Positions 15,600 to 51,094 of a DNA stretch of 64,000 bases are shown in pieces. The notes under the pieces are model-generated. The model was given only the letters and a program-made list of their open reading frames with translations. It did not search any database and was not told the origin of the DNA. Each line of letters opens with the position of its first letter. The stretch's first letter is position 1. The stretch spans positions 227,681 to 291,680 of the forward strand of contig CAWBOD010000011.1 in NCBI GenBank assembly GCA_963790345.1. The letters run 5' to 3'. The stretch is from an uncultured Acidimicrobiia bacterium. GTDB taxonomy: Bacteria; Actinomycetota; Acidimicrobiia; Spongiisociales; ZC4RG35. The position numbers and the translations under genes are program-made.

Positions 15600-16231
15600 A
15601 TGAGCAACAAAGGAATCGTCGTCACCGCGACCGGCGTCGCCTCGGGACCCCCAGACCGGGCCGTGCTGACGCTGGGCGCCAACGCGGTACGCGGCAGATG
15701 CGGCAACGGCACTCGCAGCCGCCAACAGCAGTATCGAGAAGCTCATTTCAACACTGGCCGGCCTCGGCATCCAAGGTCCCGACATCCAGACATCTGACTT
15801 GTGGATCCACCCCGAGCACAACCACGAGGGTTCGTCGGCCGGCTTTCGGGTGAGGAACACGGTGCGAGTCACAACGACGGCACTGGACGGTCTGGGAGAG
15901 CTCATCAGCGCAGCCACTGCGGTCCTGGGAGACCTCACCGAAATCCATGGCCTCACCTTCGAGGTCTCCGATCCGGCTCCCCTGGAAGCCCAAGGCGCGG
16001 GTTCGAGCCTGGGCGCGGGCCCATGACAAAGCACGACAACTCGCCGACCTGGCCGGCGCCCGTCTCGGCAAGGCGGTCGAGGTGCGGGAAACCAGCCGTT
16101 ACGACCAGGGACCGATGTACATGGACCTCGCCAGTCCCAAAGGTGTTCCCATCGAAACCGGAGCGGCCTTGGTGGAGGTCCATCTCCAGGTCCGGTTTGC
16201 CCAGTTCCCGGACGACAACACTTCCGGATGA
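15600..16231 (+). pseudogene. SIMPL/DUF541 family protein, two frameshifts
   Basis: Three consecutive frames read GIVVTATGVASGPPDRAVLTLGANAV / ADAATALAAANSSIEKL...FRVRNTVRVTT...EVSDPAPLEAQ / ARVRAWARAHDKARQLADLAGARLG. Switches near 15688..15695 and 15990..15998. Confidence 0.75.
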
Positions 16232-17713: not shown

Positions 17714-17760
17714 CGCCGATCGAGACGAAGAGGCCTCGACGACAGGTCACGACGCAGGAG

Positions 17761-18560
17761 ATGACCCGATCGACACGGAGACTGAATTGGGATCCCGACA
17801 GCTACATGGAGTTCGCCGACCTGCGGAGCCGCCCCGGACTCGAATTGATCGCCCGGATCAGCCATCCCGATCCCGAGGTCATCGTCGACCTCGGCTGCGG
17901 ACCCGGGCATTTCACCGCAGTGCTGGCGCGGCGCTGGCCCAACGCCAAGGTCGTTGGAATCGACGACTCCGGGGAGATGCTGCAGAGGGCCGAATCTCAA
18001 TTCCCCTCCCATCTCTGGCCGACGATCGAATGGCGTCACGAAGAGATCGCACGATGGGCTCCACAACATCCCGTCTCCATCCTGTTCAGCAATGCCGCGC
18101 TGCATTGGCTGGGGAGCCATCAGACCCTTTTCCCGCGGCTGCTGGCGACCATCAAGCCCGAGGGAGTGTTCGCCGTTCAGATGCCGGACAATTGGGACCA
18201 GCCTTCTCACCGACTCATCGGCCGCCTGGTTGGTGATCCCCGCTGGAGCGCAGCGGACCGCCCCGGCGTTCCTCGGCCATCCGGTTGCAGAACCGGCCGA
18301 GTATCGAAGATGGCTGCGAGCGAGCGCAGCCGAGATCGATCTCTGGAGGACGACCTATCACCACGTTCTCGAAGGCTCTGACGCGGTGTTGGGGTGGGTC
18401 AAAGGATCGGTGCTTGCGACCGATCCTTTCCGTCCTCGAGCCGGCTGAATCGGAAGAATTCCTATCCGAACTGGCCGAGGGCGTACCGGACGAGCTATCC
18501 GCCGCAGGAGGATGGTGGGACCCTCTTCCCGTTCAGCCGCCTGTTCATCGTGGCCAGCGA
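17761..18560 (+). pseudogene. tam: trans-aconitate 2-methyltransferase-like SAM methyltransferase, at least three frameshifts, 3' end unresolved
   Basis: WDPDSYMEFADLRSRPGLELI and VDLGCGPGHFT are in frame 1. The reading then passes through frames 2, 0 and 1 (AEYRRWL..., [35 protein letters not shown]). Switches near 18245, 18415 and 18480. Confidence 0.75.
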
Positions 18561-18590
18561 CGGCGGTCTTGCAGACTTCGACGAGCCGCT

Positions 18591-19487
18591 TCATCGGGCT
18601 TTCTCGATCGGGCTTCTCGTCGGGACCTCACTGCATTTCCGTATTCGGTCCACGATCCGTCGTAGTTGCGAACCCGCTCGAACCCCAGCAGATGGGTCAG
18701 CACGAACCAGGTATGCGCCGATCGCTCGCCGATGCGGCAATAGGCGATCACGTCATCGCCCGGGAGCGAGGCCCGCTTCGTCGATGTAGAGGGCCTTGAG
18801 TTCCTCGGCGGACTTGAAGGTGTTGTCTTCGTTGGCGGCCTTTTTCCAGGGAACGCTCTTGGCCCCGGGGATGTGGCCACCCCTCAGCGCCCCTTCGTTG
18901 GGATAGTCGGGCATATGCAGCCGCTCACCCCGGTACTCCTCCGGTGACCGAACATCGATGAGAGGTTTGCGTTCCTTGCTGTGCGGCAAGACGTCACCGA
19001 GAAAGGCTCGGACCTGTGCGATCGTCACGAGTCGGCATCGGGTAGTCCGCTGCCTCTCGGTCGGGTGTGTCGGTGCTCAGCTCGCGGCCTTCGGCCACCC
19101 ACTTGGCGCGGCCGCCATCGAGAAGGCGTGTATCGGCGTGGCCGAAGAGCTCGAACACCCACAAGGCGTAGGCGGCCCACCAGTTGAAGTTGTCGCCGTA
19201 GAAAACAACTGTGCTGTCGGGCCCGATTCCACTGCTTCGACATGAGTCGGGCGAATTCATCCGGCCCGAGGTAGTCCCGCATGACCGGATCGTTGAGATC
19301 CGCCACCCAGTCGATCTTGATAGCGCCCGGAATATGTCCGGTGTGGTAGAGCAGGACGTCTTCATCGGATTCGACGATGACCAGGTTGGGGTCGTTCAAA
19401 TGCTCGGCCAGCCAGTCCGTCGAAACCAGGCGATCGGGGTGTGGAGTAGTCCCGGAACTTTTCGGCAGGGTCGGCAGCGACAGGCAA
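18591..19487 (-). pseudogene. sseA: thiosulfate sulfurtransferase (tandem rhodanese), about five frameshifts
   Basis: Pieces in different frames concatenate to a full-length rhodanese: [11 protein letters not shown]...[11 protein letters not shown] / [19 protein letters not shown] / [11 protein letters not shown]...[11 protein letters not shown] / [17 protein letters not shown]...[10 protein letters not shown] / [11 protein letters not shown]-stop. One switch sits at a G4 run, 19436..19439. Confidence 0.85.
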
Positions 19488-34576: not shown

Positions 34577-37345
34577 TCAAGGGTTATAAGCATCAAGGGG
34601 CGGACAGGCGCAAATCAGATTGCGGTCTCCGCCGGGCCCGTCGACTCTCGAAACCGGCGGCCAATACTTGGCGAGCCGTTGCCGCGGATCGGGAAATGCC
34701 GCGGTTTCCCTTGAATACGGGCGATCCCAGTCGCTGGAGACCACATCGGCGGCCGGATGGGGGGCCATCCGCAGAGGGCTCTCGGCCTCGGTCCACTCCC
34801 CCGACTCGACCCGGGCGATCTCGCTCCGTATTGAGATCATCGCATCACAGAATCGATCGAGTTCTTCGAACGACTCGCTCTCCGTCGGCTCGACCATGAG
34901 AGTCCCGGCGACGGGAAAGCTCAACGTGGGGGCGTGGAACCCGTAGTCGGCCAGTCGTTTGGCGACGTCTTCGGCTGTGATTCCGGTCGTCCGGGCGATC
35001 GGGCGGACATCCAGAATGCACTCGTGGGCGACCCGACCGTTGGAGCCCGCGAATAGAACTGGAAAGTGCGGATGCAGCCTGGCTGCCAGGTAGTTCGCAT
35101 TGAGGATCGCAACCTCGGTTGCCTTCCTCAATCCATCCGGACCCATCATTCGTATGTAGGCATACGAGATCGGCAGGATCCCGGCCGATCCCCACGGCGC
35201 CGAAGCCACCGGACCGATTCCGGTGGGTGGCCCGGCTTCGGGCCGCAAGGGATGATTGGGGAGAAATGGAGCCAAATGCTCCTTCACCCCGACCGGGCCT
35301 ACGCCGGGCCCGCCTCCGCCGTGCGGGATCGTGAAGGTCTTGTGCAGGTTCAAATGGGACACGTCCGCTCCGAATTTTCCGGGACGAGCTACTCCCACCA
35401 TGGCGTTGAGATTGGCGCCATCGAGGTATACCTGTCCGCCGCGGTCGTGGACGATCCGGCAAATCTCTTCGACTGCCTCCTCGAAGACGCCGTGGGTCGA
35501 CGGGTAAGTGATCATCACCGCCGACAAACGGTCGCCATGGCGCTCCGCCTTTTCCGTGAGATCCCCGACGTCGACATTGCCGCGGGCGTCACAGGCCACG
35601 ACCACAACCTCCATTCCGGCCATCACCGCCGAGGCGGCGTTGGTGCCGTGAGCGGATGAAGGTATGAGGCAAACCACCCGCTGGTCTTCACCCCTGCTGC
35701 GGTGATAGGCCCGGATTGCCAGAAGACCGGTGAGCTCGCCCTGCGACCCGGCGTTGGGTTGCAGCGAAACGCGGTCGTACCCCGTGATCTCCACGAGATA
35801 CGACTGCAACCGCTCTATCAGCTCGACGTATCCGCCAATCTGGTCGAGAGGTGCGAATGGGTGGACCCTGCCAAAGCCCTCCCATGTAATCGGGATCATC
35901 TCGGCAGTCGCGTTGAGCTTCATGGTGCAGGAGCCGAGGGGAATCATCGTCCGATCGAGAGCGAGGTCGCGATCGGCCAGACGCCGAAGGTAGCGCAACA
36001 TCTCGTGTTCGGACCGGTAGCGATGAAAGACGTCATGCGTCAGGAACTCGTCCTGTCTTGCCAGTGCGGCTGGTATTCCTTCCGAGACTCGACCCCGGTC
36101 CTCCCCCAATCCGAAAGCCATGACCAACGCGTCAACGACTTCCGGTGTGCTGAGCTCGTCGAACGAAATACCTACTCGATCCGCGTCTAGCGGCCGCAGG
36201 TTGATCCCAGCCAGCAATGCCTTCTCCACGATTTCGCTCGCGCGGCCCGGAACTCTCACGGTGAGGGTGTCGAACCAGGTCGCGTTCTCAACCTCGACGC
36301 CTGCCGCGGCTAGCTCGCCGACCAGCCTTCCGGCGAGGTGGTTGATCCGCCGAGCTATGGCCGCAAGACCATCGGGCCCGTGCCAGCAGGCGTAGAGAGC
36401 GGCCATGATCGCCAGGAGAACCTGGGCTGTGCAGACGTTCGAGGTGGCCTTTTCACGTCGAATGTGTTGCTCGCGGGTCTGCAAAGAGAGGCGGAATGCG
36501 ACCCGCCCCCCCGTGTCCTTGGAGACCCCCACCAGACGCCCGGGCAACGCCCTCACCAGCGATTCCCGGGTTGCGATGAAACCAGCATGAGGACCACCGA
36601 AACCCAGCGGAACCCCGAACCGTTGCGACGAACCTACCGCGATGTCCGCACCCATCGAACCGGGCGAGGCGAGCAACGTGAGGGCAAGCAGATCAGTCAC
36701 CACCGCGATCAATGCACCGGCTTGATGAGCCTCGGCGATGATCGCCCTGTGGTCAGAGATCGCTCCACTCGATCCGGGATACGCCAGCAGCGCTCCACAT
36801 GACTCGGCGAAGTCGAAATCGGCCGGCCTGGCTACCTTCACCTCAATCCCCAGGGGTTCTCCCCGGGTCGAGACCACAGCGATCGTTTGGGGGTGGCAGT
36901 CTTCGTCGACCCAAAAAATCAATCTGTCTGCGGGTCCCAGGCGTCGGCACATGGTCATCGCTTCGGCAGCTGCGGTGCCTTCGTCCAGCAAGGAAGCGTT
37001 GGCGATCTCGAGGCCGGTGAGATCGGAGACCATCGTCTGAAACGTCAGGAGCAACTCGAGGCGGCCCTGGGAGATCTCGGCCTGATAGGGCGTGTAGGCG
37101 GTGTACCACGCCGGATTTTCGAGAACGTTTCGCAATATCACGGGAGGCGTGATCGTGTCGTAGTAGCCGAGCCCGATCATGGAGATGAGAACCTCGTTGC
37201 GCTTGGCCAGCCCCGACAACTCGGCCAGTGCGGCGCGCTCGGAGAGTGCGGGCTCGAGGGCAAGGGCGCGGTCGGTTCTGATTCCCTTGGGCACGGTCTG
37301 GGCGATCAACTCCTCGAGGGAATCGGCGCCGATCTCGGCGAGCAT
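34577..37345 (-). CDS. gcvP: glycine dehydrogenase (decarboxylating), P-protein
   Basis: 922-aa intact ORF with an internal PLP-lysine region ([18 protein letters not shown]). The conserved [15 protein letters not shown] lies in frame just upstream, with no start codon. An SD-preceded ATG at 37407 (MEALADF) is one frame off, so a 1-nt indel near 37385 probably truncates the annotated 5' end. Confidence 0.9.
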
Positions 37346-37475
37346 TTTGGCGATATCGGCGGGCCGCGGCCCGATGTGGCGGTCCGGAAATCCGCAAGGG
37401 CCTCCATCAAAGGCTCCCTTCTGTTCCGTCCCCCGACTGTCGGCCCGTCGCCTTCAGCCTCGCCTCAGCCGTGCG

Positions 37476-37593
37476 GTCCTTATGCCTGAGAGTTTGTGGG
37501 GATGCGTTGCCCCTTCGGCGACCAATTCGACCCCAGGCCAATTGCTGGAGAGTTGGCCATTCCTGGCCTTGGGTCGATCTGGTCTCTCCCGCC
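37476..37593 (-). promoter_or_regulatory. glycine riboswitch (single aptamer seen) in the gcvP leader
   Basis: The minus strand reads GGGAGAGACC...TCGCCGAAGGGGCAACGCATCCCCACAAACTCTCAGGCATAAGGAC. This contains the conserved CCGAAGGGGCAA and CTCAGGCA-AAGGAC cores, closed by GGAGAG/CTCTC. Confidence 0.75.
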
Positions 37594-37672
37594 CGGCTTC
37601 ACAGGCAAGGTCAATGTAGCGCAGGGCGATCGACTATCCACTAGGGAAGGCATGGCTTGGGAAGGAAGAGAA

Positions 37673-37884: not shown

Positions 37885-38968
37885 TCAGACCGAGAAGCGG
37901 ATCACCAGCACGTCGTCGGGTTTGATCACGTAGGACTTTCCTTCGACCCGGACAATTCCCAAACGCTTTGCTTGATCCCAGCCGCCGGCCTCGATGACCT
38001 GGTCGATCGTCGAGACCTCGGCCCGTATGAATCCCCTCTCGAGGTCGGAGTGGATCTTTCCTGCTGCCTCAGGTGCGGCCGCCCCGGCCCGCACAGTCCA
38101 CGCCCGCGATTCCTTGGGACCGACTGTGTAGAACGAGAGCAACCCGAGACCTTGATATGCAGCGCGGACCATCAAGGACAGCGCGCCCTCACCAAGACCG
38201 AGGCCTTCGAAAAGTTCGGCTCGTTCGTCGGCAGACAGCTTCGCCCCTTCCTCCTCGAGGCGGGCCGAGACCGCGACTACAGGATCACCAGGGGGGAACC
38301 AGCCGTTGCAGACGCTCAACCACCTCGGATGTGTCCTCGGTGCCTTCGTCGAGATTCACGACCCACACCGCCGGCTTCAGCGTCAAGGGGCTGGAATCTC
38401 GGAATGCAGCAAGTGCCTCCTCCGACCATTCCCTGGTTCGAAGGGACGCCCCACCGGCTAGCACCTCGACTGCCTCGTTGATCACGTTGGCCGCTCCCCG
38501 TTTCGACGGATCGGAGTTGGCCTCCCGGTTGAGGCGGTCGGCCCGGCGGGCCAGCACTTCATGGTCTGCCAATGCCAGCTCGAGTAGCAGTTCCTCCGCC
38601 TGGGTCATCGGATCGATCCCCGTGTCCTCGCTGGTGACCGATGGATTCGAAAATGCTCGCAGAACGACCACGAGCGCATCCATCTCGCGCAATTGGCCGA
38701 GGAACCGGCCGCCGAGGCCGCCACCTTCGCGACCGGGAGGCGATAAGGCGGGAAGATCGAGCAGCTCGAGAGTGGCCGGAACGACCTTCACCGACTTCTC
38801 CACCAGGGCCGCCGCCTCCAACTTGGGATCGGGGATACGAGCCACACCCATGTTCGGTTCAGTCGTGTTGTAGGGGTGGGTCGCAGTGGCAGCTTCGAGG
38901 CCCGTGAGGGCGTTGAACAGTGTCGTCTTTCCGCTGTTGGTGAAACCAACGATCCCGAGCCGTGCCAT
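37885..38968 (-). pseudogene. ychF: ribosome-binding ATPase YchF, one frameshift
   Basis: MARLGIVGFTNSGKTTLFNALT (ATG 38968) ...ERLQRLVPP is in one frame. GDPVVAVSARLEEE...GKIHSDLERGFIRAEV...VIRFSV is in the next. The switch is at the G6 run 38291..38296. Confidence 0.9.
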
Positions 38969-39057
38969 TCCCTCATTGTGCCAACTACGAAACCCTTCTC
39001 CGACGAGGGTGAATCCAGCGAGGACGGCGGCCGGGCCGGGCAAGTAGGTTGAGATCT

Positions 39058-40052
39058 ATGGATCACGTTGCGGTAATCGGTGCCGGCTCCTGGGGAACCG
39101 CGGTGGCGGCCCTGGCCGCCACCCACCAGCCGGTGGTCCTGTGGTCGCGCCGCCCCGAGTTGGCGGAGGTCATCAATGCGACTTCGGAGAATCCGGACTA
39201 CCTCCCCGGGTATCGCCTCCCCTATGGCGTGCGGGCCACCAGTGATCTGGACGAAGCCACCAGGGGGCCACCGTGGTGGCCATGGCGGTTCCTTCTCATG
39301 GATTTCGAGGGGTGATCGGTCGGATTTCGGGTCTCCCGGCCGAGCTCCCGATGGTTTCTCTCACCAAGGGAATCGAGGAGAGAACGCTGAGACGGATGAC
39401 AGAGGTCGTCGCCGATGTGATCCCCGATCACAACCCCGCAACGATCGGGGTGTTGACCGGACCGAATCTCGCCGGTGAGGTCATGGCGGGCCAGCCAACG
39501 GCCGCGGTGGTTGCGATCGTCGACGACGAGGCCGCGACGATCGTCCAACGAGCCTTGATGGGCCTCACCTTTCGCGTCTATACCAACCCTGACGTCGTCG
39601 GCTGTGAATTGGCAGGGTCGCTCAAGAACGTCATGGCAATCGCCGCCGGAATGTCAACCGGTCTTGGCTTCGGTGATAACACCCGGGCCGCCTTGCTGAC
39701 GCGGGCCCTCGCCGAGTTGACCCGACTCGGGAGTAGCGCTCGGCGGACAACCGGCAACCTTCGCCGGTCTGGCGGGCATGGGTGACCTGATCGCCACGTG
39801 CACGTCGGTCCAGAGCCGCAACTTTCGGGTCGGCATCGGCCTGGCTCAGGGACGCAAACTCGATGACATCATCGAAGAGATGAAAATGGTGGCCGAAGGC
39901 GTCAAGACCACAAGGGCCGTTTTAGAACTGGCCGCGGCGCCAACGTCGAGATGCCGATCGCGACCCAGGTGGCAAAGGTCCTGTACGAGGGGCATCACCC
40001 CCGGGACGCAGTGATGAGCCTGATGACCCGCCAGGCCAAATCCGAGAGCTAG
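39058..40052 (+). pseudogene. gpsA: NAD(P)H-dependent glycerol-3-phosphate dehydrogenase, three frameshifts
   Basis: [15 protein letters not shown] / [12 protein letters not shown]...LTKGIE...GPNLAGEV...GSLKNVMAIAAG / FAGLAGMGDLIATCTS...EGVKT / ANVEMPIATQVAKVLYEG. Switches at the G5 run 39263..39267 and near 39730 and 39938. Confidence 0.9.
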
Positions 40053-40077
40053 GCCCGACACCTAGATAGAACCGCTC

Positions 40078-40529
40078 CTAGATATAGAACCGATAGAGGA
40101 CCTGCGCCACGCACGCCGGCTTTTCGGACCCTTGGATCTCAAAGGTCAGATCGAGGCTGACCTGGTAGCCCCCGGGAACGTCTTCAACCGCGGCGAGCGT
40201 TCCCCCCGCTCGCAATTTGGCGCCGACCGGAACCGGTGAGACGAAACGGACCCTGTTGGTTCCGTAGTTGACACCCATGCTCACGCCACCCACCGAGAGG
40301 ATTTCGGACACGAACGGCACGGCGAGGGACAAAGTCAGATAGCCATGGGCGATCGTCGTCCCGAACGGACCCGCCCGGGCCTGCTCCGGATCGACGTGGA
40401 TCCATTGATGATCGTCAGTGGCCTCGGCGAAGGCGTCGATCCTCTCCTGGGTTATCTCCAGCCAATCCGAGTATCCCAGATGGGATCCGACCGACCCGGC
40501 CAGCTCCTAGGCGATGCAAAAGTCGTCAT
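40078..40529 (-). pseudogene. MaoC-like (R)-specific enoyl-CoA hydratase, frameshift near the 5' end
   Basis: ELAGSVGSHLGYSDWLEITQERIDAFAEATDDHQWIHVD...GTTIAHGYL is in frame with the 84-aa ORF but is preceded by a stop. The ATG (MTTFASP, 40529) is in another frame. Switch near 40505. Confidence 0.8.
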
Positions 40530-41470
40530 CGGAGCGACCTTAATGGTCCGGCGTCGACGATCAGCGCCGCCGAACCCGCAACGACTCGATACAGCAGTTC
40601 GCGATCGCCCAGAAGGTGGTGAAGCCTCCGTTCCAGTTGGCCCACCGGGTAGAGATTCTGAGGGGCGCGAGGGTCTTTGTGGGCTGCGCTGGCGTAACGA
40701 CACATGGTCGCGGCGGTGAGGTCGGCGATGCGGCGGGCCGAGGCAACGTCTTGATCGGCATTGACTTCTGCCCGAACGATGCCGTCCATCGGACCCGGCA
40801 TCCTTCAGTGGGAGCTTGAGATACCAGGAGAAGCGACTCCAGCTGGTCGTGGTCAGAAAAAGCGGGGTCCGATCTCCGGGTCCGAGCCTGCCCAGGATCG
40901 GACGCAGGTTCGGGAGGGAGATAGTGGACGTGCTGGGTCTTGATGTACCCGACTGCCCCGGGAACGTGCCGATGATGGGACAGAGGGCCGTCAACGACTA
41001 TCAGCGGGGCATCGGCGTGGGAGGCGACGATCGTTCCTTCGAATTCGCCCATTCGCTGTTGCAGGCCCAGCCAGAGATCTTCGGCGACGATGCCCCGGGT
41101 TTGATGGATGTCGTATTCGGCATGACGGGTGATGACCTGGCTTGCGGCCGCCGCCGACGGTGAAGATTCCCCGCCGAATCTCGTGGGCCACGATGCGAGC
41201 GCTGTGGTTGCAGAGCACTGCCCCGGCGCCATAGCTGGCGGCCAGGGCCAGCATGGGTGTCCCGTCCTCTTCCTCGATCCAGAGATTGGCGTCGACACGG
41301 CGCACGCCGTCGACAAAGAGCACCTCCTCGGCCGGTTTGGCATTGACGACGATCGGGGCCCACTTGGCTGCATCGACTTCGATGTCGACGACGGCCTCGG
41401 GTGCCTCGAGGTCTTCCTTGCCGCCCGGGCTTCCGTACTCAGGTGACCAGGGCTGCACCGTGAACTTCAT
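40526..41470 (-). pseudogene. nurA: NurA-like nuclease (putative), three frameshifts
   Basis: Four frames concatenate to ~315 aa: MKFTVQPW...VLFVDGVRRVD... / ...ADAPLIVVDGPLSHH...GYIKTQHVHYLPP / LRPILG...TPLFLTTTSWSRFSWYLKLPL / DGIVRAEV...KDPRAPQNLYPVGQLE... The two DG motifs, the size and the position after rad50/sbcC fit NurA. The call is from memory of motifs only. Confidence 0.5.
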
Positions 41471-41479
41471 GGTGTCCTG

Positions 41480-43816
41480 TCATTGCCGCACCTCTGTGAC
41501 CGTCGCTCCCTCAGCCGACTTGCGGATTTCGTACCGAACCGGCATTTGTTCGGCTAACTCTGCTACATGGGTGACGATTCCCACGGTCTTTCCGGAAGCG
41601 CCCAGCTCGGAGATGACCGAACCAACCACATCGAGGGTCTCGGCGTCGAGTGTGCCGAAGCCCTCATCGAGGAAGATCGATTCGAGCCGGGCCGACGCCA
41701 ACGAGGTTTCGGCTACTTGATCGGCCAGGGCCAGAGCCAGCCCAGGGAAACCAGAAACGTCTCTCCCCCCGAAAAAGTCCTGATCGAGCGGCGGTTGCCG
41801 GCCGAGAGATTGTCGATGACTTCGAAGTCGCGCCTTGCTCGTATCGAGCGAGTACTGCCCCTTGGTCAGATCGGCCAGCCGCAGGTTGGCCCCTGCCACG
41901 AGGGCGGCGAACACTTCGTCGAGCAGCCAGCTTCGGAAGGCAGTCGTTGCGCAGCAGCTTGACCAGCAGATGCCGCCACTTCCTGGAGTGCCAATGTGTC
42001 GCGGCGCTCGGCCGTGAGCCGGCTCTGATTCGATCCTCGCCTTCTTGATATGATCGAGTCGGGCCTTCGCCCGAGTGAGAGCGTCGAAGGCAACGTCGCG
42101 TAGCGGGCGATCTTCGATGCGATGTCCAGAGCGGGAAACCGGGAGGTGATCTCGGCGGTTCTCACCTCGAGCCGAGCCTCAGCCTCCGTCCCTGCTCGGC
42201 CTCCGCTTCGGCTTGGGCTTCGGCGATCGTTGTGGCCTGCTTGCCCGCCCACGCAATCAGGGATTTCCAGTCGATGGCCGGATCATCGAACGACAACTTC
42301 GGCGGATCGAGGCTGGCTAACCGATCGCGGGCGTTCTGCAGATCACGCATGGCATTGCGTTCCCGTTCGGCCAGGCGCTTGCGGCCCTGCTCGACTTCTT
42401 CGTGCCTGCGTTTGATCGATTCATCGTCCTTGCGGGCTTGCTTGAGTTGTTCTTCGGCGCTCGGCCACTTGTCTGGCGATCGCCGGCAAGGTCGCTTCCG
42501 GCGGCGACTCAGTGTCTGCTTGCGGAGTCCCTCCAACCTCTCCTCCAACCGGAGCAGGGCACTCTCCGCCGTTGACAGCTTTGGTGAGCTTTTCAACTCC
42601 TTCTCGGCCCTCTCCTTGGCCGATCGAGCCTTGTCGACCCCGGGTTCGGCCAACGGACGCGAGGAAGGGTGTCACTTTTGATCGCACACCGGGCAGCGAT
42701 GTCCGGCTTCTAGCGATCGTCGGAGATGGGCAGCTCGGTTTTGGTCGATGGTTTCGTCCAGCGCCTGCTTGGCGGCGAGCTGGACCTGGCTGCCTCGGTC
42801 ACCTGTGCCCGGGCTTCTACGACAGCGGTATTGGCCACGACCATCTGTCCTGGGTGCCTCGCAACTCGGTCCATGCCGTCGACCATTGGGAAAGGAGCTT
42901 CGAGGTCGGCAACGTGGCGAGCGATTTCTCGATGGCAGTTAGCCGGGCCAGCGATCTCGGTCCGGGCGGCGACGATTTCGGCCGCTTTCTCTGCAACTCG
43001 ATCCTCTCTCCGGCCATGGAATCGAGATCTTCGGGCAGGCTCAGCTTCTCCAGCACGTTGCGCCAGTTGCTCGTGCGCTCGACCTCGGCCGCTGCCGCCT
43101 TTCCCGCCGCCCTGAGCGCCTCGAGTTCGGGCTCGACCAGTTCGACCTCGCCCAACAATGTTGTCAGCGCCGCGACCGCGCTGGCGGCCAACTCCTCGTC
43201 GAGGTCTCCGATCGTTCCGAGGGCGGCGAGCCGTTGGTCGATCGTTGCGAGCTGCCCACCGGCTCGCTCTCGTCGCTCGGAGGCTCGCTGGCCGATGCGC
43301 TCATAGATACCAAGATCGAGAAGGGCCGAGAGGAGGTTCTGGCGATTGGCCGGCTTGTCGTGGAGGAAGCGTTGGAACTCGCCCTGGGGCAAAAGCACGC
43401 AGGTGGTGAACTGTTCGAAGTCGAGACCTAGCAACGCCACGACGGCAGAGGTGACGGCATCTGCGCCCGTCGCCAGCACTTCCCCGGCCTTCTCGAGGGT
43501 CGCCTCATCGGTGGTTGCGGTCCCCCGTCTTCGAATCTTTGCGGACGTGGCGCGCGACCTGATAGTGATCGTCCCCGACCGAGAACGCGAGAGACACAAC
43601 CGATTCATTGAGGCCCTGGGTCACCACCGGCGCAACATCGCGGCGACCGTGCCGGGGAACTGACCCATACAGAGCGAAGCAGATTCCGTCGAGGACGGTG
43701 GTCTTGCCAGAACCCGTCGCCCCGACGAGGGCGAACAATTCGACTCCTGAGAAGTCGATCTCGGTGTATTGGCGAAACGCACCAAAGCCCTTGAGAACCA
43801 GCCTCTCGGGTCTCAC
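41480..43816 (-). pseudogene. sbcC: SbcC/Rad50-family ATPase, roughly ten frameshifts
   Basis: N-terminal MRPERLVLKGFGAF...GATGSGKTT. Coiled-coil fragments lie in several frames. Zinc hook HRCPVCDQK at ~42675..42700. The signature FSGGETF is out of frame. C-terminal IFLDEGFGTLD...GIVTH. The GTG start overlaps the sbcD stop (GTGA). Confidence 0.85.
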
Positions 43817-44972
43817 GAGTCTGGCTCTCCCCCACCCGGTTGGTCGAGCACCTCGACCAGCAACTCGTCGAACAACGCGGTCAGCCGGCGATCCTCGACC
43901 TTCTTGACCCCCAGGTAATCGCGAAATAGCTCCGAGGGATCACGGCCCAGCCGCTGCGGGACTTCTCTGGCAGCCTCCGAGGCGAGGGAGGCGGCAAGGC
44001 GTACCTCCACCGCCTCCGGGAAAATTGCCCGGACCTCGTCGGCCAGGCCGGCCCGAGCTGCTTCCTCGAGTTCGATCCGAAGGTAGGCGTCTCCCACCTT
44101 GTCGGCCATCGCTTCGATCTGCGCAAGAGTTCCGCGAAGCGTCCTCAGGCGTCGACCACCTTTGAGGTCCCTCGTGGTGACGGCCACCGGCAGGCCGGGC
44201 TCGGCATCCACCAGGACGATGGCCTTGCGGTCTTCCCCTTCTCCGAAGTCGAGCTGGATCGGTGATCCGGAATACCACATCGGAACGGGCGCCGGGACCT
44301 TTTGCGGACGATGGAGATGGCCCAGGGCGACGTAGCTGATGTGACCGGGAAACGAGAGTGCGGGCACCGAATAGTCGAACAGGTGAGCAGTTCTCTCTCC
44401 ACCACCCGGTACTCCGCCCGCCACCATCAGGTGGGACAAGACCAGGTTGACGGTGTCGGAGGTCATACCGGCCGTGAGGGCACTGGAGAATGTCGGCCAC
44501 CCTTTCGGCGTACTCGCCAATCCGCTCGGCCTGGTCGAGTCGCAGAATCTCCTCGACCCGGACGATGCCGCGCTTGCCGATGAAAGGCACCAGAGCGATG
44601 CGAACCGCCATGTCGGGCAAGTCGAGAATGCCTCCCTCGTCCGGGCCGAGCGATCGTCGCCCCTACGGTGACGCGCCCGAGGGAGAGCAACGGTGCCACC
44701 GCTCGCAGGCGGGCCGGGTTGTCGTGGTTGCCGGCAACGATGACAACCGGCGCGACCTGGGCAAGGTCGAGAAGAGATCGATAGACGATCTCTTCGGCTG
44801 CCGGAGACGGGGCGCTCATGTCGAAGATGTCGCCGGCGACGAGGATGAGGTCGACCTGCTCGTCGCCGGCCATGGCGGCGATCTCCGACAGAACCTGGCG
44901 ATGCTCGTCGTCACGGGAACGACCGCGGATCGTCCGGCCCACATGCCAATCGGCGGTATGAAGAAGTTTCAA
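43813..44972 (-). pseudogene. sbcD: SbcD/Mre11-family nuclease, two frameshifts
   Basis: MKLLHTADWHVG, LVAGDIFD and VAGNHD are in the first frame. ALVPFIGKR is in the second. GHLHRPQ and the C-terminal domain are in the third. Switches near 44645 and 44495. Confidence 0.85.
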
Positions 44973-44984
44973 CTCGTCCTCACC

Positions 44985-46667
44985 TCACGTGAGGCCGGCA
45001 AACGGGTCCTCCGACTTGCGGCCCGGCATCGCCAACGCCTCCGAGGCCCGTGTTGCCCAGGCCGGGAAGGGGAACTCGAGAACCAGCGGCACGGGCAGCT
45101 CCGGTTGTGACAGCAGCATCGTGCCCGGTTTGAGAATGGTGGCTCGCTGGCGCTGCATCGCCGGAAGGAACCCGTATTCCTCCCGCGAAGCCTCGGCGGC
45201 GTCGAGCCGACCCACCACCCGGATCGAGCAGTTGGAAATGATGCGGCGCTCAACCTCGCTGGCCGTCTGCTGGGCTCCGATGAGGATGACGCCGAGGCTG
45301 CGACCACGTTCGGCGACGTCGAGAAGAATCTCTTTGATCGGGCTGTTTCCCTCGCGCGGGGCGTACTTGTTGAGTTCGTCGAGGACCAGGAAGAGAAGCT
45401 CGGCCGACTGCCCCGAGCCCTCCTTGTCGTCGAAGGCTCGGCGGATGGTCACACCCACAGCGAACCGCTTGGCGCGATCGTGGAGGTTGTGAAGGTCGAC
45501 GACCGTGACCTGGCGGTCGAGCTTGATCCGGTTCTTCTCGGGGTCGGGCTGATCGCCGCGAATCAGGCGCTCCACATGCCTGACCGAGCCCTGGAGGCGA
45601 CGGACGAAGGCGTTCACCGTCCCCCGGCCGATGGCCGTCCCGGCCCACACCGGTGCATCGTCCTCGCTTTGCACCTTCTGGGTGATCAGGTCGACCAGGT
45701 CGCGGAAGGTCCGTGCCTCCTGGCCCTCCAACCGGACGCCGCCGTCACCGATGGCGATGACCCGCCGAAGCTGGACCATCACGCTGTAAACGACCATCGT
45801 GTACTGGGCGCGATCGTCTTCGGCATCGGCAAACAGAAACGGCAGCAGATCTTCGTGGCAAAACTCTTCGAGCGTCCAAAAGAACGCGGTGACGCCGGTC
45901 GCGCGCGAGGCGACATCGGGCACCGCGGCTCCACCGGGCCGGGGCGGGGCATAGACCGTCATCGAGCGAAACGCTTCGGCGGGTAGTCCGAGCTGCTGGT
46001 ATCGAAGACGCTGCTCGTCGTCGAGAACGGCGTTGGCATGATCCAGGAACAAGAGATCTTCGCCCTTGACGTTGAAGATCAAGGCCTTGGTGTTGAGGGC
46101 GCGCTTTTCGAGCACTCCCGAGGTGAAGAGAGAATGCAGCAGGAACGTCGCGTAGCTGGTCTTGGTGGCGACACCTGAGATTCCGGAGATGTTGACGTGG
46201 GCGCCGCGCTGGCCGTCGAGAAACTCGAGGTTGACGAAGAGAGGCTCGCCGCCGCGGCTGAGACCCACTGGCAGACGCTTCTCCATCCGGTCGAAGAACA
46301 GGGCCTGTTCGCGCTCGGCCCCTTTGGCTATACGGACCGGCTGTCCGGGGAGCGGAGGTACGAACATCTCGGGCTCGAACCGGGTAGCGGTGATTTGGGC
46401 GGACTCGGACACCTCGGCCGGCAAGAGTCCCTGTTCGATCAGAAATACATCGGAGTCGAAGCGGGCCCCCTCATGGCGAGCCCGAACCTGGCTGACCATC
46501 CCATAGATGTGGACGATCTCCCCTCCGGGGAGGTGGCGCTCGAGGGCGACCACGTCGTCAAGCTGAAGAAACCGCTGCGGATCCACCCCCACCCAGAACT
46601 CGAGCGGGGTGGCATCCTCGGTTCCAATCACCCGACCGACGGGCTCTTCCGGTGCGCCCACTTCCAC
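44985..46667 (-). CDS. herA: HerA-family hexameric ATPase/helicase (DUF87 type)
   Basis: Intact 560 aa. N-terminal barrel (GRVIGTEDATPLEFWV), deviant P-loop region NISGISGVATKTSYA, Walker B FLVLDELNKYAP, and ILIGAQQTASEV...IRVVGRL. Confidence 0.8.
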   Translation of the reverse strand: MEVGAPEEPVGRVIGTEDATPLEFWVGVDPQRFLQLDDVVALERHLPGGEIVHIYGMVSQVRARHEGARFDSDVFLIEQGLLPAEVSESAQITATRFEPEMFVPPLPGQPVRIAKGAEREQALFFDRMEKRLPVGLSRGGEPLFVNLEFLDGQRGAHVNISGISGVATKTSYATFLLHSLFTSGVLEKRALNTKALIFNVKGEDLLFLDHANAVLDDEQRLRYQQLGLPAEAFRSMTVYAPPRPGGAAVPDVASRATGVTAFFWTLEEFCHEDLLPFLFADAEDDRAQYTMVVYSVMVQLRRVIAIGDGGVRLEGQEARTFRDLVDLITQKVQSEDDAPVWAGTAIGRGTVNAFVRRLQGSVRHVERLIRGDQPDPEKNRIKLDRQVTVVDLHNLHDRAKRFAVGVTIRRAFDDKEGSGQSAELLFLVLDELNKYAPREGNSPIKEILLDVAERGRSLGVILIGAQQTASEVERRIISNCSIRVVGRLDAAEASREEYGFLPAMQRQRATILKPGTMLLSQPELPVPLVLEFPFPAWATRASEALAMPGRKSEDPFAGLT

Positions 46668-46814
46668 CCTGCGAGGGTATCAGCGGGGTGTGACGCTTTC
46701 GGGGACCGCAGGCACGGCCGACACCATCGGCCTCACCGTTGGCAGGCCCGTCCAGATGTGGCTGTTGCCGACAGTTATCGTGGCGATGCTGGTTTTCGAG
46801 GAACGGAGACTGAC

Positions 46815-47015
46815 ATGGCCTATTCGGTCGACATAGATCTGCCGACCAAGGTGGTCCTGAACAAGGACGTGAGGTTCGTTATCAGGAGTGACAACGCCAA
46901 ACTCGGCGAGTTCCTTATCAGCAAGGGCGGAATCGACTGGTACCCGGCCAACAAGAAGACTCCGATTACGAAAACCTGGAAGCAGTTCGACCGCCTCATG
47001 CAAAGCGGAAGCTGA
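46815..47015 (+). CDS. small hypothetical protein (66 aa), low-GC orphan
   Basis: GGAG precedes ATG 46815. Product: MAYSVDIDLPTKVVLNKDVRFVIRSDNAKLGEFLISKGGIDWYPANKKTPITKTWKQFDRLMQSGS. About 54% G+C by hand count. Divergent from herA. Confidence 0.55.
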   Translation: MAYSVDIDLPTKVVLNKDVRFVIRSDNAKLGEFLISKGGIDWYPANKKTPITKTWKQFDRLMQSGS

Positions 47016-47019
47016 CTCT

Positions 47020-48222
47020 CTAACGAACCGGGTCGATCCGGTACACGGTCTCCGTGTTCATCACATACACCTCGCCCGCCGCACTTCTCCCGAAAGAGAT
47101 GACGTTGCCGATGGCGCCGACCTGTTCGCTCCAATCCTGGGCTTCGGTCACAGCCCCATCTGAGTACAGGAAGCTTCGAAGGTAGCCACCGCAATAGTCC
47201 GAGTAGAAGTAGTGCCCTGTCAGCTCCGGGATCGCTTCCCCCCGGTAGACCACTCCCCCGGCGATTGAGCAAGTCCCGGCATCGCCATGAGGCACCTCGA
47301 GGACGGGAGGCGTCTGTCCAGTCGTGTCGCATCCCTCCGGCGGCTCGAAGCAATGCAGACCCTCGCTGATCGACCAGCCATAGTTGAGTCCCGGGGCATC
47401 GGCCGGAGCGACGTTGATCTCCTCGTAGGAGCCTTGACCTACATCACCGATGTAGATCAGACCTTCGTCGAACGAAAACCTCCAGGGGTTGCGAAGTCCG
47501 CTCGCCCACACCTCCGGAGCCCCGGAACCGTCCGTGTACGGATTTCCGTCCGGAATTGCATAGGGATCGCCGGAGTCGACGTCGATTCGCAAGATGTTGG
47601 CCAACAGATCATCGACCGGTTGGCCGGTTCCGAAGGTATCGCCACCCCCACCACCATCACCTAGTGCGATGTAGAGGTAGCCATCGGGACCAAATTCGAT
47701 CATCCCGCCGTTGTGGTTGGCAGCCGGTTGAGCAACTTCAAGGATCAACCGCTCCTCACCATCGACGAACTCAGAGATGACCGTGTCCCCGTTTCGATCC
47801 GAGTAATGAAGAAAGAGGCGATCGGGGTCGGTCGGATGCCAGGCCATTCCAAGCAGCCCGCGCTCACCCTCATCCGTCACCCGATCGGAGATGTCGAGGA
47901 ACTCCTCCGGTCCGTTCTCGGTCAGCATCCATACCTGTCCGTTTTTCGTGAGGATGAAGTTCTGGCCGTCGGAAGGACGGAACGTGAAGAGCACCGGGAA
48001 CGGCAGCCCGAAGGCGATCTCGGTGTAGGTGAGGCCTGTCAATTCGGGCAACGGGGCCGCAGTTGTGGTTGTGGTCGGTGCAGTTGTGGTCGTGGTGGTT
48101 TCGGCGGACGTGGTGGAGGTCGACCCCGGGCCGGCGGCAGCCGTGGTGGTCGTCAACGCCGGATCTCCACCGCCCGAGCAGGCCGACAGAAGCAAAAGGA
48201 CTACGGGAAGTCTCGACCGCAT
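47020..48222 (-). CDS. PQQ-dependent sugar (glucose/sorbosone) dehydrogenase-like lipoprotein
   Basis: MRSRLPVVLLLLSAC lipobox and a Thr-rich linker. HNGGMIEFGPDGYLYIALGDGGGGGD and GLRNPWRFSFD motifs. Confidence 0.8.
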   Translation of the reverse strand: MRSRLPVVLLLLSACSGGGDPALTTTTAAAGPGSTSTTSAETTTTTTAPTTTTTAAPLPELTGLTYTEIAFGLPFPVLFTFRPSDGQNFILTKNGQVWMLTENGPEEFLDISDRVTDEGERGLLGMAWHPTDPDRLFLHYSDRNGDTVISEFVDGEERLILEVAQPAANHNGGMIEFGPDGYLYIALGDGGGGGDTFGTGQPVDDLLANILRIDVDSGDPYAIPDGNPYTDGSGAPEVWASGLRNPWRFSFDEGLIYIGDVGQGSYEEINVAPADAPGLNYGWSISEGLHCFEPPEGCDTTGQTPPVLEVPHGDAGTCSIAGGVVYRGEAIPELTGHYFYSDYCGGYLRSFLYSDGAVTEAQDWSEQVGAIGNVISFGRSAAGEVYVMNTETVYRIDPVR

Positions 48223-48297: not shown

Positions 48298-49554
48298 TTA
48301 CGAGCTCAGGGTGGGAGGCCGCTGGTGGTGTAGGTGTGGCCGAGTTGGCTGGTCCATATGGTGGTCGCCGTTGGGGAGGGGTTGGTGGGTCCAGTTGGAG
48401 TGGTGTCGGGTTTGGTGGTGGTGGCGGCAGAGGGGTGCGAGGTTGTCGGTGGTGGTGGGTCCGCCGTGGGCCCAGGGTTGGCGGTGGTCGAGGTCGCATT
48501 CGGCGGCGGGGATGCGACAGCCGGGGAAGACGCAGTGGGGGTGGCGAGCTTCGACCTGGCGGCGTTGGAGGTGGGTGGGCCGTCTTCGGGTTACACCGTT
48601 GTCGATGGTCATACCGCTGTCACTATCGGTCAAGGTCCAGCGCCATTCGGCTCCGGGTTGGTTTTCTGCGACTTGGCGGGCGATGTCGGCGATGACCGGC
48701 CCATATCCGGCTAACTCTCCCGGATCGTCGGTGAGCCGGGTCAAGGTGGTGAGGTCGACGTGGATGTCGACCGTTCCCCGCCGACCGCCATGGGCTTGGT
48801 GCTTTCCGTCTAAGCAGGTCTAAGAAGATGTCGGCTCGGAGCTGATCGATGGTTCTGGTCTCGTCCCCGGTTTTGAGGTCTTGGGCCAGGTCGGCGATCC
48901 GTCGCATCGCCGCTTGGACCCGGTCGGGGGGCAGATCCAACCCGAACAGGTGGGCGGTCCCATCCACGGACGGTTCCATCACGACCCGCCGCCCTTCCAC
49001 CGCTTCCCCGTATCGGGTGGCGGCGTCGTCGGGATCGGCCTGGACACAGACCCGGCGGATCAGAGCGTCCGAGCTGTCCGGTGGTGAGACGGGCCGCCGC
49101 TTCGAGGATCCGAGCCACCACCTCCCGGGCGGTCACCTCTGACAGGTGGGCGGTTCCGTGGACGATGACTCGGGCCCGGCGGAGATCGATCTTCCCGGCC
49201 GCCAACGCTTCCCACACTTCGGGCAGCCGCTCCTTCAAATCGACAGCCAGGGCCAGATCGGCATCGGCGGCGCGGCGGGTCAGATGCAACGCCGCCCCGA
49301 TCTCGGCCGCCGCCGACTCCGCAGCGATCTCCGGGTCGGCTTCCAACTCGGACATCAGCTCGGAGATCGAAGCCATCGCCTCGAAAACCTGGGCTTGGAA
49401 GAACGAAGCCAGACCGCTGATGGGCCTGCAACATCCTGATCCGGTTGTAACCAGACAAATCCTCAACAGACACGCTGGAGAGGAAAGCGGCCAAAGCCGG
49501 GGTCGGTTCCATCCCCTCCAACCCCTTCGGCAACCCACCACCCGACTCGAACAT
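48298..49554 (-). pseudogene. DUF222 + HNH endonuclease (REP13E12-like actinobacterial family), three frameshifts
   Basis: N-terminal fragments MFESGGGLP...AFLSSVSVEDLSGYNRIRMLQA and ...AAEIGAALHLTRRAADADLALAVDLKERLPEVWEALAAGKIDLRRARV. C-terminal CVFPGCRIPAAECDLDHRQPWAHGGPTTTDNLAPLCRHHH. Confidence 0.8.
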
Positions 49555-49596
49555 ACGTTCGAATCATACAGGAAGCCACTGACAGAAAACACCCCC

Positions 49597-51094
49597 TCAC
49601 ACCGGAGCGAACGAAATTTTTCTGGCGCCATCCAACGGACCAACAAACTCGAGCAGCCGCTCCGCCTCCCTCACCACCTCGGCTCTGTTCGCACTTGAAA
49701 GCGGGCGGAAAGCCTTCACTAATAGCTCCGATCCCTGCAACGACCAGGTGCCGGCTACGAACCCATCCACGAGGAAGGTCGGCATCACCTGGGCACCTCC
49801 CGGCATGACCAACTTTCGATCCTCATCGCTGATGATCCTGGTGCAACGTCGGCGTTTCCCAGCAGGACGTTGTCAAACGGGGAAGGAACCGGACCGGCGC
49901 AGGCACGTGGATGTCCATGAGTACCGCGTCGGGCAGGTCGAAGAGATTCACCTTCCTCCGTGCGATAGACCACGAACGAAATTTTTCTGGCGCCATCCAA
50001 CGGACCAACAAACTCGAGTAGCCCCTCCGCCTCCCTCTTCACTTCGGCCCTGTTCGCGTGAAAGCGGGCGGAAAGCCTTCACCAATAGCTCCGATCCCCG
50101 CAACGACCAGGTGCCGGCCACGAAGCCGTCCACGAGGAAGGTCGGCACCACCTGGGCACCTCCCGGCATGACCACCTTTCGATCCTCATCGCTGATGATC
50201 CTGGTGCGGTCGGCGTGGCCCAGCAGGACGTTGTCGAACGCGGGAAGGAACCGGACCGGCGCCGGCACGTCAATGTCAACGACGGCCGCGTCAGGCAGGT
50301 CGAAAAGTTCACCTTGCTCTGTGCGATAGACCCGCAGACCCGGTCGCATCCTTTCGAAGATCTCACCCGTCCTGGTGAGACCGGACCAACTCTGGAAGTC
50401 ACTGACGGCGGCCGGTCCGAAACCTGCCAGGTACCTTCGGATCAGCGCCTCCGGTTGCGACACGGACATCTCTCCCACAACGACCTCGGCACGAACAACC
50501 GCCACGCCAGCAGGGCTTCCCCATCGCCCCCACGAGCTGGTCGCGGGCGAGTGGACCAGCGGCACACGACGTTCCAATGCCGCAACCAGCACCTGACCAT
50601 TGCGTCCCGGCCACTTCTCGACGAAGCGCTTCCCCAATTCACGCCTTGTCAAGCGTGTTGTCGGCGAGAAGTTCGATTCCGACAGCCGTGATCTCATCGA
50701 GGTCGAGTCCGATCGTCTCGCGGGCGACATAGGGAGACCGGGCGTTGCGATCGAGTACCGGCTGGATCGTCGGTCGGAGCCAGCGGAAATCCTCCGCAGC
50801 CACGAGATGTTGCGTGCTTCGCAGTGCGGCGCCGCGCACCACCTGGCCGCTGCTCAGCAACGACACCAGATCGTCCCGTCGAAAGTCGACGACCCGGGCC
50901 CAGAGCCCGACATAAGGCCAGTTGGGCTCCTGCGCCTGCAGCGCGACGAGGCGTCGGATTACGTCGAGCGGAGAAAGCGAGACACGGTCGAGGAGAAACT
51001 GCCGGTCGAGCAGAGTTCGGTTGAGGGCGCGAAGCGAAATCTGGCTCCCGTTTACCAAGCGGCGCCGATCCCATTCACTCCCGTACCCACACAC
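49597..51094 (-). pseudogene. winged-helix AlkZ/YcaQ-like DNA glycosylase family protein with duplicated C-terminal segment, several frameshifts
   Basis: N-terminal LRALNRTLLDRQFLLDR...LVALQAQEPNWPYVGLWARV. The middle and C-terminal parts lie in other frames. The last ~120 codons occur twice in tandem. The start may be GTG 51055. Confidence 0.7.
49608..50332. repeat. ~365-bp direct tandem duplication (2 copies, roughly 90% identical by eye)
   Basis: CGAACGAAATTTTTCTGGCGCCATCCAACGGACCAACAAACTCGAG... begins at 49608 and again at 49973. Both copies end ...GTGCGATAGACC (49960..49971 and 50321..50332). Confidence 0.9.

Follow-up and report, generated by a model that had tools for sequence, protein, structure and literature searches.

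Four adjacent genes on a contig of an uncultured Acidimicrobiia bacterium, encoding a HerA-type ATPase, the SbcD and SbcC counterparts of Mre11 and Rad50, and a NurA-like protein, raise the question of whether such a string is an archaeal import, a repair system in decay or an ordinary bacterial operon. The genes lie in a row, all on the minus strand, at 40526-46667 of the 64,000-nucleotide (nt) stretch analysed here (GenBank assembly GCA_963790345.1, contig CAWBOD010000011.1, forward-strand positions 227,681 to 291,680), which is called the window below and whose coordinates are used throughout. A first-pass annotation of the same letters had described the string as archaeal-style and only herA as intact. 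We consider it highly probable that the locus is a bacterial operon for processing the ends of DNA double-strand breaks, with a layout normal for its HerA clade and with frameshifts that are most likely errors.

Layout of the locus

The operon and its predicted promoter were made up of the following parts.

46674..46694, minus strand: predicted operon promoter; GTCACACCCCGCTGATACCCT matches the core of the RecA-NDp motif and is conserved among close relatives.
44985..46667, minus strand: herA, 560-aa hexameric FtsK/HerA-type ATPase of the Deinococcus type; intact open reading frame (ORF), GTG start.
43813..44972, minus strand: sbcD, Mre11-type nuclease; TTG start, two +1 indels near 44645 and 44482.
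41480..43816, minus strand: sbcC, Rad50-type ATPase of ~778 aa with a short coiled coil; GTG start, 16 indels between 43528 and 41744.
40526..41470, minus strand: nurA, predicted RNase H-like 5'-3' nuclease of bacterial type, ~313 aa when corrected; three +1 indels near 41158, 40914 and 40796.

The co-directional, tightly packed arrangement reported on first reading was confirmed in all its coordinates and spacings. The herA stop (44985) and the sbcD TTG start (44972) are separated by 12 nt, the sbcD stop and sbcC start share GTGA (43813-43816), 9 nt lie between the sbcC stop (41480) and the nurA ATG (41470), and the nurA stop (40526-40528) overlaps the ATG (40527-40529) of a maoC-like gene. 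Such packing suggests a single transcript. GC content was ~64% throughout the window, and that of the operon was uniform with its surroundings. As sequenced, the minus strand at 40.5-46.7 kb holds one long intact ORF (44985-46667) followed by shorter ORFs in shifting frames. Domain searches on the uncorrected ORF fragments matched Metallophos, SbcD_C and sbcd models at 43.8-45.0 kb and SbcC and Rad50 models at 41.5-43.6 kb, and returned no domain match for the fragments of 40.5-41.5 kb.

Distribution of the gene order

In a scan of one genome per species, at least 589 species were found to encode this HerA, and the best 80 loci were analysed. The order herA-sbcD-sbcC-nurA was contiguous on one strand in 45 of the 80 and was kept with one insertion in another 10. 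Contigs ended early in 14, with sbcD or sbcD-sbcC seen to follow herA, and within 3 kb of herA in 7, with nothing visible; a different or incomplete layout despite enough flank was found in 4. Gaps between operon genes across loci were mostly 0-20 nt or overlaps. The genomic pairing of herA with nurA takes the form of one operon with sbcD-sbcC between them, kept in 55 or more related loci. This order and its conservation were observed directly: herA-sbcD-sbcC-nurA is the normal arrangement of this HerA clade. The first-pass annotation knew of no such standard layout in bacteria; these counts, and the presence of the order in several phyla, show that for this HerA clade it is one.

In the closest relatives (loci L001 and L003-L008) the four genes were intact and in the same order. 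Contigs carrying close HerA homologues (86-96% identical) encoded HerA-like proteins of 559-584 aa, SbcD of 378-384 aa, SbcC of 777-786 aa and an unannotated nurA counterpart of 301-306 aa; on the longer of these contigs (L001, L005), MaoC, GpsA, YchF and GcvP came next, a synteny equal to that of the window. Farther afield, chromosome records of several megabases with the labels Gammaproteobacteria (L066, OZ241908.1) and Dehalococcoidia (L080, OY760867.2) carried the layout, as did metagenome-assembled genomes (MAGs) labelled Gemmatimonadota, Saprospiraceae, Cyclobacteriaceae, Myxococcales and Acidobacteriota; it was also found in Nitriliruptoria, Streptomyces sp. BB1-1-1 and Nonomuraea gerenzanensis. 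Cultured carriers exist (Streptomyces, Nonomuraea, Rhabdothermincola, Ilumatobacter). RefSeq names the products of the Streptomyces copy 'ATP-binding protein', 'exonuclease SbcCD subunit D', 'SMC family ATPase' and 'hypothetical protein', and the first and last of these names were also those seen for HerA and NurA of the clade among NCBI MAG annotations.

The order is common; a published description of the four-gene layout in Actinomycetota was not found within an incomplete coverage of the literature, the nearest being a remark on Oceanithermus profundus in PMC5448004. The first-pass annotation had named an order both common and already described in Actinomycetota as the finding that would overturn its reading, and the first half of that finding was obtained.

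The Streptomyces sp. BB1-1-1 copy lies on a linear plasmid (NZ_CP134205.1, L088, 1-6319), where the operon adjoins TIGR02680, TIGR02678 and DUF2397 genes and an ImmA/IrrE peptidase. We take this neighbourhood to resemble a defence island, unlike the housekeeping context in Acidimicrobiia.

Identity of the four proteins

HerA. A profile built from 25 HerA homologues matched D. radiodurans HerA (PDB 7f6d_B) over its full length at E=4.3e-175, in two stretches (query positions 5-310 and 315-548), and bore out the naming of the first gene. The product is orthologous to D. radiodurans HerA over its full length and is of bacterial type. It carries a GISGVATKTS P-loop and an LVLDELNKYAP Walker B; the P-loop NISGISGVATKTSYA is identical in D. 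radiodurans HerA, and the Walker B VLDELNKYAPREG is identical or nearly so. The P-loop deviates from GxxxxGK[ST] and is invariant across the 25 homologues. It had been called unusual, but since D. radiodurans HerA has it in common, the deviant form is the norm of the bacterial HerA clade. The identification came by way of PDB profile searches: the window HerA matched no Pfam family at E<=0.01, so that the proposed check against DUF87 gave no match, and two HerA homologues reached HAS-barrel (PF09378) at sub-threshold scores only (E 0.05-0.18), DUF87 (PF01935) being absent. NCBIfam and PADLOC HerA models gave weak C-terminal matches only. The family is large, with thousands of close homologues and 515 clusters at E<=1e-30 (clustered at 50%); the closest listed homologue (P0001) is 96% identical to the window HerA, and the named ones among those listed are from Acidimicrobiia or other Actinomycetota.

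HerA from Actinomycetota was 65-68% identical to that of six loci with other labels (L060, L064, L066, L072, L080 and L086, labelled Gammaproteobacteria, Bacteroidota, Dehalococcoidia and Gemmatimonadota), whereas between the same six loci and the L001/L002 orthologues SbcC was 34-39% and NurA 41-47% identical. HerA is far more alike across phyla than SbcC and NurA, which means that HerA is unusually strongly constrained or that the operon has spread horizontally.

SbcD and SbcC. The reading of the middle pair as SbcD and SbcC was upheld by family models and by motifs. Frame-corrected SbcD was 83% identical (318/384) to SbcD of the related locus L008, with no in-frame stop, and kept the four phosphoesterase motifs DWHVG, GDIFD, GNHD and GHLH; sbcD fragments matched Pfam Metallophos and SbcD_C. 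The TIGR00619 sbcd model gave 124 bits on the window's N-terminal SbcD fragment and 155.8 on the L008 orthologue (cut-off 77.65). Frame-corrected SbcC was 73% identical (568/778) to L008 SbcC, again free of stops, with Walker A GATGSGKTT, a CPVC zinc hook, the signature motif SGGETF and DEGFGTLD. L008 SbcC scored 282 bits on TIGR00618 sbcc (cut-off 478.5), still its best-scoring family; the score lies under the cut-off because the coiled coil is short. On model scores both proteins are bacterial-type, not archaeal-type.

NurA. Frame-corrected NurA was 87% identical (269/309) to the L008 orthologue, without stops. It matched D. radiodurans NurA (PDB 7f6d_H) at E=1.6e-24 and T. maritima TM1739 (1zup) at E=5e-6; a profile of 26 NurA homologues matched the same two entries at E=3e-35 and E=9e-15, respectively. 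On Pfam NurA (PF09376), the check that had been suggested, the corrected protein scored 17.9 bits (E=0.0022): this was the sole family matched, but the score fell under the 21-bit gathering score. Three intact close homologues behaved in the same way (14.6-19.4 bits, only family matched each time), and homologues 59-68% identical to the L001 orthologue used as query pass PF09376 and bear the NCBI name NurA. No NCBIfam model matched NurA. The fold was assessed on the homologue P0127, ~72% identical to the N-terminal part of the window NurA by tblastn, rather than on the window protein. Its AlphaFold2 model (pLDDT 85) returned 7f6d_G as the top Foldseek match (E=1.3e-18, TMq 0.66), then 1zup_A (E=6.8e-17, TMq 0.68), and no other strong match. 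The putative active-site residues D54 (FVDGV), E144, D160 (DGPL) and H263 (HKDPRAPQN) are invariant in the 26 homologues and present in the corrected window NurA, whose motifs FVDGV and VVDGPL had been picked out on first reading; the DG, DGP and HKD motifs have aligned counterparts in D. radiodurans NurA. The fourth gene is nurA, as had been proposed, on the strength of the 7f6d_H match and the homologue's fold, and its product, like HerA, is orthologous to the D. radiodurans protein. Every motif quoted in the first-pass annotation for the four genes was present, those of SbcD, SbcC and NurA after frame correction.

Frameshifts

Indels were counted by frameshift-aware protein-to-DNA alignment to the intact L008 proteins. 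A frame plot of GC content at third codon positions was too noisy for frameshift mapping, and codon-usage tiling was used along with the alignment. In all, 26 single-base indels were found at 38.3-44.6 kb (38296-44645): 16 in sbcC, 3 each in nurA and gpsA, 2 in sbcD, 1 each in maoC and ychF, and 0 in herA. No in-frame stop was found in ~2,500 corrected codons, and there was no larger deletion. The neighbouring genes affected were the following.

40078..40529, minus strand: maoC-like dehydratase, aligned to L008 MaoC; single-base deletion near 40507.
~39058-40052, plus strand: gpsA; 3 indels near 39263, 39729 and 39935.
37885-38968, minus strand: ychF; 1 indel near 38296.

Matches to gpsA and ychF in tblastn were likewise split across frames. 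By contrast, gcvP, GSDH and the genes at 53-61 kb aligned in one frame apiece. Substitutions against L008 fell mainly at third codon positions, with ratios of 3.3 to 9.1 in the broken genes (9.1 in nurA) and 8.7 in intact herA, a pattern of purifying selection. The frameshifts most likely stem from indel errors of assembly or sequencing in a stretch of low quality, because the indels are single-base only, bring no nonsense codon, affect housekeeping genes and leave signatures of selection undiminished; the damage to gpsA and ychF in itself argues for a technical origin. That only herA is intact is true among the four genes as sequenced, but is best read as the effect of clustered assembly indels, in a block that reaches on to maoC, gpsA and ychF.

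Split genes were also present elsewhere in the window. malQ (GH77 4-alpha-glucanotransferase) extends over three frames (16222-16503, 16490-16765 and 16764-17792) and forms, with apparently fragmented SIMPL/DUF541 and rhodanese-domain genes, a second split-gene cluster at 15733-19435, which lends support to patchy indel error across the contig. An AlkZ-like DNA glycosylase gene at 49948-51094 on the minus strand is divided between two frames (51094..50639, Pfam positions 1-100, and 50730..49948, positions 101-315), and a DUF222-HNH gene (48.3-49.6 kb) is split over several. The AlkZ-like glycosylase adds a DNA-repair gene to the neighbourhood of the operon.

Predicted promoter and regulation

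The 150 nt upstream of herA were poorly conserved but for GTCACACCCCGCTGATACCCT (46674-46694, minus strand). The window motif reads cGTCACac-CCCGCTGA-TACCCT and ends 6 nt before the herA GTG, which makes a leaderless mRNA probable. It fits the consensus of RecA-NDp promoters, tTGTCRgtg-8nt-TAnnnT (PMC5656591), and this motif extends to other Actinobacteria according to a review (PMC8223512). Of the 68 loci with an Actinomycetota label, 45 had GTCR-N11-TAnnnT immediately before herA, against ~1 expected (binomial P ~3e-66, from a background density of 0.044 per kb per strand); of the 11 with labels of other phyla, only 1 had the pattern. It also preceded sbcD in 17 loci that have an intergenic gap there. 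The consensus across related loci was cTGTCacacccc-N5-TAc..TCg. The start codon lay 6-8 nt past the -10 element in 46 of 63 motif instances, which suggests leaderless transcripts. Conservation of the motif at this place was observed directly; it supports, without proving, a predicted control of the operon by DNA damage.

No LexA box was found upstream of herA, the window's only perfect box (49547-49562) lying before another gene. Scans of 39.9-47.1 kb were uninformative: no promoter-like site was returned for sigma-70, and one terminator-like site was returned inside sbcC, with 4.8 expected by chance.

That perfect LexA/SOS box, TCGAACATACGTTCGA (49547-49562), abuts a near-consensus RecA-NDp motif, TGTCAGTG-N8-TATGAT (49563-49583, minus strand), and the pair sits upstream of the DUF222 + HNH endonuclease gene (49646..48298, minus strand) that is split over several frames. 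This gene presumably resembles the damage-inducible mycobacterial 13E12-repeat family.

Neighbouring features

The nurA/maoC overlap had been listed as an oddity. It is real, and it belongs to the local synteny of the closest relatives: MaoC follows nurA in L001, L005, L008, L010, L014, L016 and L037 and not in the wider clade. maoC is probably a neighbour rather than a functional part of the repair operon. A small divergent gene of ~68 aa (46815-47021, plus strand) lies between GSDH and herA, with a 67-aa counterpart at the same place in L003 and L004. A glycine riboswitch (Rfam RF00504, 56 bits) at 37464-37601 on the minus strand precedes gcvP (37345..34577), as is usual for genes of glycine cleavage. 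Scans of the locus for repeats and for Rfam families returned nothing relevant to the operon, and neither flanking repeats nor mobile-element genes were found.

Proposed function

By analogy with characterised relatives, SbcCD, the bacterial Mre11-Rad50, would recognise DNA ends and clip those that are blocked or form hairpins. A hexamer of HerA, seated on a NurA dimer, would then translocate on DNA and feed it to the NurA nuclease, and this step would give longer-range 5'-3' resection and 3' tails for RecA-dependent recombination. The four genes would be transcribed together, probably on a leaderless mRNA. RecA-NDp-type promoters are PafBC-activated DNA-damage promoters in mycobacteria, and by the same token expression of the operon would be expected to rise after damage.

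It is possible, and we offer it tentatively, that the locus represents a widespread four-component bacterial end-resection operon, not yet described as such, which in Actinomycetota belongs to the PafBC/RecA-NDp regulon, and whose order is explained by an ancient operon held in common or by a functional constraint, with HerA-NurA physically coupled to SbcCD. The phyla concerned would be Actinomycetota together with those of loci labelled Chloroflexota, Bacteroidota, Gemmatimonadota, Pseudomonadota and Acidobacteriota.

Several points weigh against reading the locus as an end-processing operon with erroneous frameshifts. The indels are strongly clustered: sbcC has 16 in 2.3 kb, whereas herA (1.7 kb) and gcvP (2.8 kb) have none. 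Homopolymers are weakly enriched at them (a run of >=3 nearby at 52%, against 35% in the background). The exact window HerA, with V or M as first residue, was not found in other assemblies, and an exact 30-mer of sbcD was not found in JGI metagenome contigs, so that there was no clean same-strain copy to compare; the closest relative with available sequence had ~78% DNA identity over a 9-kb aligned stretch and ~85% within herA. The case for an artefact is indirect, drawn from the pattern in the sequence. As for the promoter, GTCR-N11-TAnnnT is not enriched in the window as a whole (2 found, 3.7 expected), and the bases after TGTCR are mostly cac where the mycobacterial consensus has gtg. Co-transcription of the four genes is predicted from gene spacing, and the physiological role of the system in bacteria is putative.

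Alternative explanations

Were the frameshifts real, the lineage would recently have inactivated sbcD, sbcC and nurA and kept herA, alone or with another partner. The distribution of the damage fits such a history, since herA is undisrupted against 21 indels in the three downstream genes and their density peaks in sbcC, and natural nurA frameshifts do occur: in Thermus thermophilus HB27 a truncating single-base deletion was confirmed by resequencing (PMC5448004). The same kind of indel nevertheless breaks gpsA, ychF, maoC, malQ and the AlkZ-like gene, and the loss of gpsA and ychF would be implausible in a free-living bacterium. Twenty-six indels have brought neither a nonsense mutation nor a larger deletion, the third-position bias in nurA is as strong as in intact herA, and related loci with enough sequence keep the order (4 of 80 different or incomplete) with no disruption detected. 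We therefore regard gene decay as an unlikely cause of the frameshifts, and inactivation of the three genes as correspondingly unlikely.

A mobile HerA-based system of defence against phages or plasmids, comparable to Sir2-HerA, DUF4297-HerA or TdpAB, would account for the weak PADLOC matches of the C-terminal half of HerA to defence HerA models and mad8 (E 1e-9 to 3e-3), for the weak fold match of the NurA model to TdpAB (E=2.6e-3), for a HerA ~65% identical across phyla, which suggests horizontal spread, and for the copy on a Streptomyces linear plasmid. It is very unlikely: D. radiodurans repair HerA is a far better match to the HerA profile (E=4e-175) than defence-associated HerAs (E=4e-4 or weaker), chromosomal synteny with gcvP, ychF, gpsA and GSDH is kept among relatives, and only 6 of 72,556 plasmid records held a HerA homologue, with no close one found among phage records. 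The locus lacks the flanking repeats and mobile-element genes that were looked for, its promoter is of DNA-damage type and the genes partnering herA are canonical SbcCD. If an archaeal herA-mre11-rad50-nurA operon had been transferred into bacteria relatively recently, this would in turn explain why the gene order matches the one that the first-pass annotation gives for thermophilic archaea, and Thermus-group herA is described as of archaeal origin in PMC5448004. Such a transfer is highly improbable, given that L008 SbcD scored 156-168 bits on bacterial sbcd models (156 on sbcd itself) against <=37 on archaeal Mre11 models, that its SbcC scored 282 bits on sbcc against <=112 on Rad50 models (best 112), and that operon GC is uniform with its surroundings. 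No archaeal HerA or NurA PDB entry was matched by the HerA profile (E limit 1) or the NurA profile (E limit 10), although the two profiles do detect the Deinococcus and Thermotoga proteins, and Thermus HepA is only 27% identical to its best archaeal HerA according to Blesa et al. (PMC5448004). Bacterial SbcCD models outscore archaeal ones three- to four-fold, and what is archaeal-style about the locus, as first described, lies in gene order alone and not in its proteins. The gene order itself may have an ancient common origin.

Significance

With the operon read as bacterial, the window locus is an ordinary and conserved repair operon, poorly named in the records examined, and should be taken neither for an import from archaea nor for a system in decay. 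In bacteria the genes for HerA and NurA usually flank those for SbcCD, unlike in the Deinococcus model organism, where the two pairs stand apart, and the layout gives genomic support for the idea that bacterial SbcCD and HerA-NurA are functionally coupled. If true, the reading as an end-resection operon bears on a question raised for Deinococcus, namely whether SbcCD and HerA-NurA act together (PMC4663267). The pattern as a whole, in which HerA and NurA bracket SbcCD in many bacteria and a RecA-NDp-like promoter precedes the operon in Actinomycetota, was not found stated in the literature consulted.

Comparison with known systems

The order herA-mre11-rad50-nurA is attributed to thermophilic archaea in the first-pass annotation, and of this the literature confirmed the shared operon only. 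In archaea the four genes belong to one operon (PMC3326311; PMC8708640), which in Pyrococcus furiosus is written mre11-rad50-herA-nurA (PMC3326311). As in the operon of thermophilic archaea (Sulfolobus, Pyrococcus), the same four roles are encoded together and co-directionally in the window; here the proteins are bacterial-type and the promoter is actinobacterial RecA-NDp-like.

With bacterial SbcCD (E. coli, Bacillus, Staphylococcus) the window pair shares the phosphoesterase motifs and SbcD_C of SbcD and the Walker A, CxxC hook, signature and Walker B of SbcC. It differs in that SbcC is short (~778 aa, against models of 1007-1130) and in that the pair is set between herA and nurA. With the mycobacterial RecA-NDp/PafBC regulon, the motif of the window clade has in common the TGTCR core, the 8-nt spacer and the TAnnnT -10 element (PMC5656591); cac mostly replaces gtg after TGTCR, and dependence on PafBC is only predicted. 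The HerA-sbcCD-NurA operon was not listed in the RecA-NDp/PafBC literature examined.

Among bacteria, O. profundus is the closest parallel in layout that was found (Blesa et al. 2017, PMC5448004): sbcD and sbcC are reported downstream of hepA (herA), and a likeness to the archaeal system, in architecture as in function, is suggested there. As in the window, a bacterial herA and nurA are linked to sbcD and sbcC. If O. profundus is arranged like Thermus, its nurA presumably precedes hepA, whereas nurA comes last in the window. That herA-sbcD-sbcC-nurA is the standard layout over dozens of species-level loci in several phyla is a result of the present survey and is not reported in that paper.

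The best-characterised relative is the HerA-NurA of D. radiodurans (PDB 7F6D, 7WRW, 7WRX), whose ATPase and nuclease activities are mutually stimulated and which has a role in recombination (PMC8708640, PMC4663267); HerA and NurA homologues are known to exist in Actinobacteria (review PMC8708640), and a link of SbcCD with HerA-NurA was left open by the Deinococcus authors (PMC4663267). The window HerA is alignable to the D. radiodurans protein over its full length and has the same deviant P-loop, and the window NurA resembles its counterpart in sequence, in fold and in the DG, DGP and HKDxRAPQNL motifs. Both proteins are shorter in the window (HerA ~560 aa against 618, NurA ~310 against 369). 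The mechanism would be expected to be that of D. radiodurans, with a HerA hexamer and a NurA dimer resecting DNA ends. In D. radiodurans nurA and herA stand apart from the Mre11 and Rad50 homologues (PMC8708640), whereas in the window and in most of the clade they bracket sbcD-sbcC.

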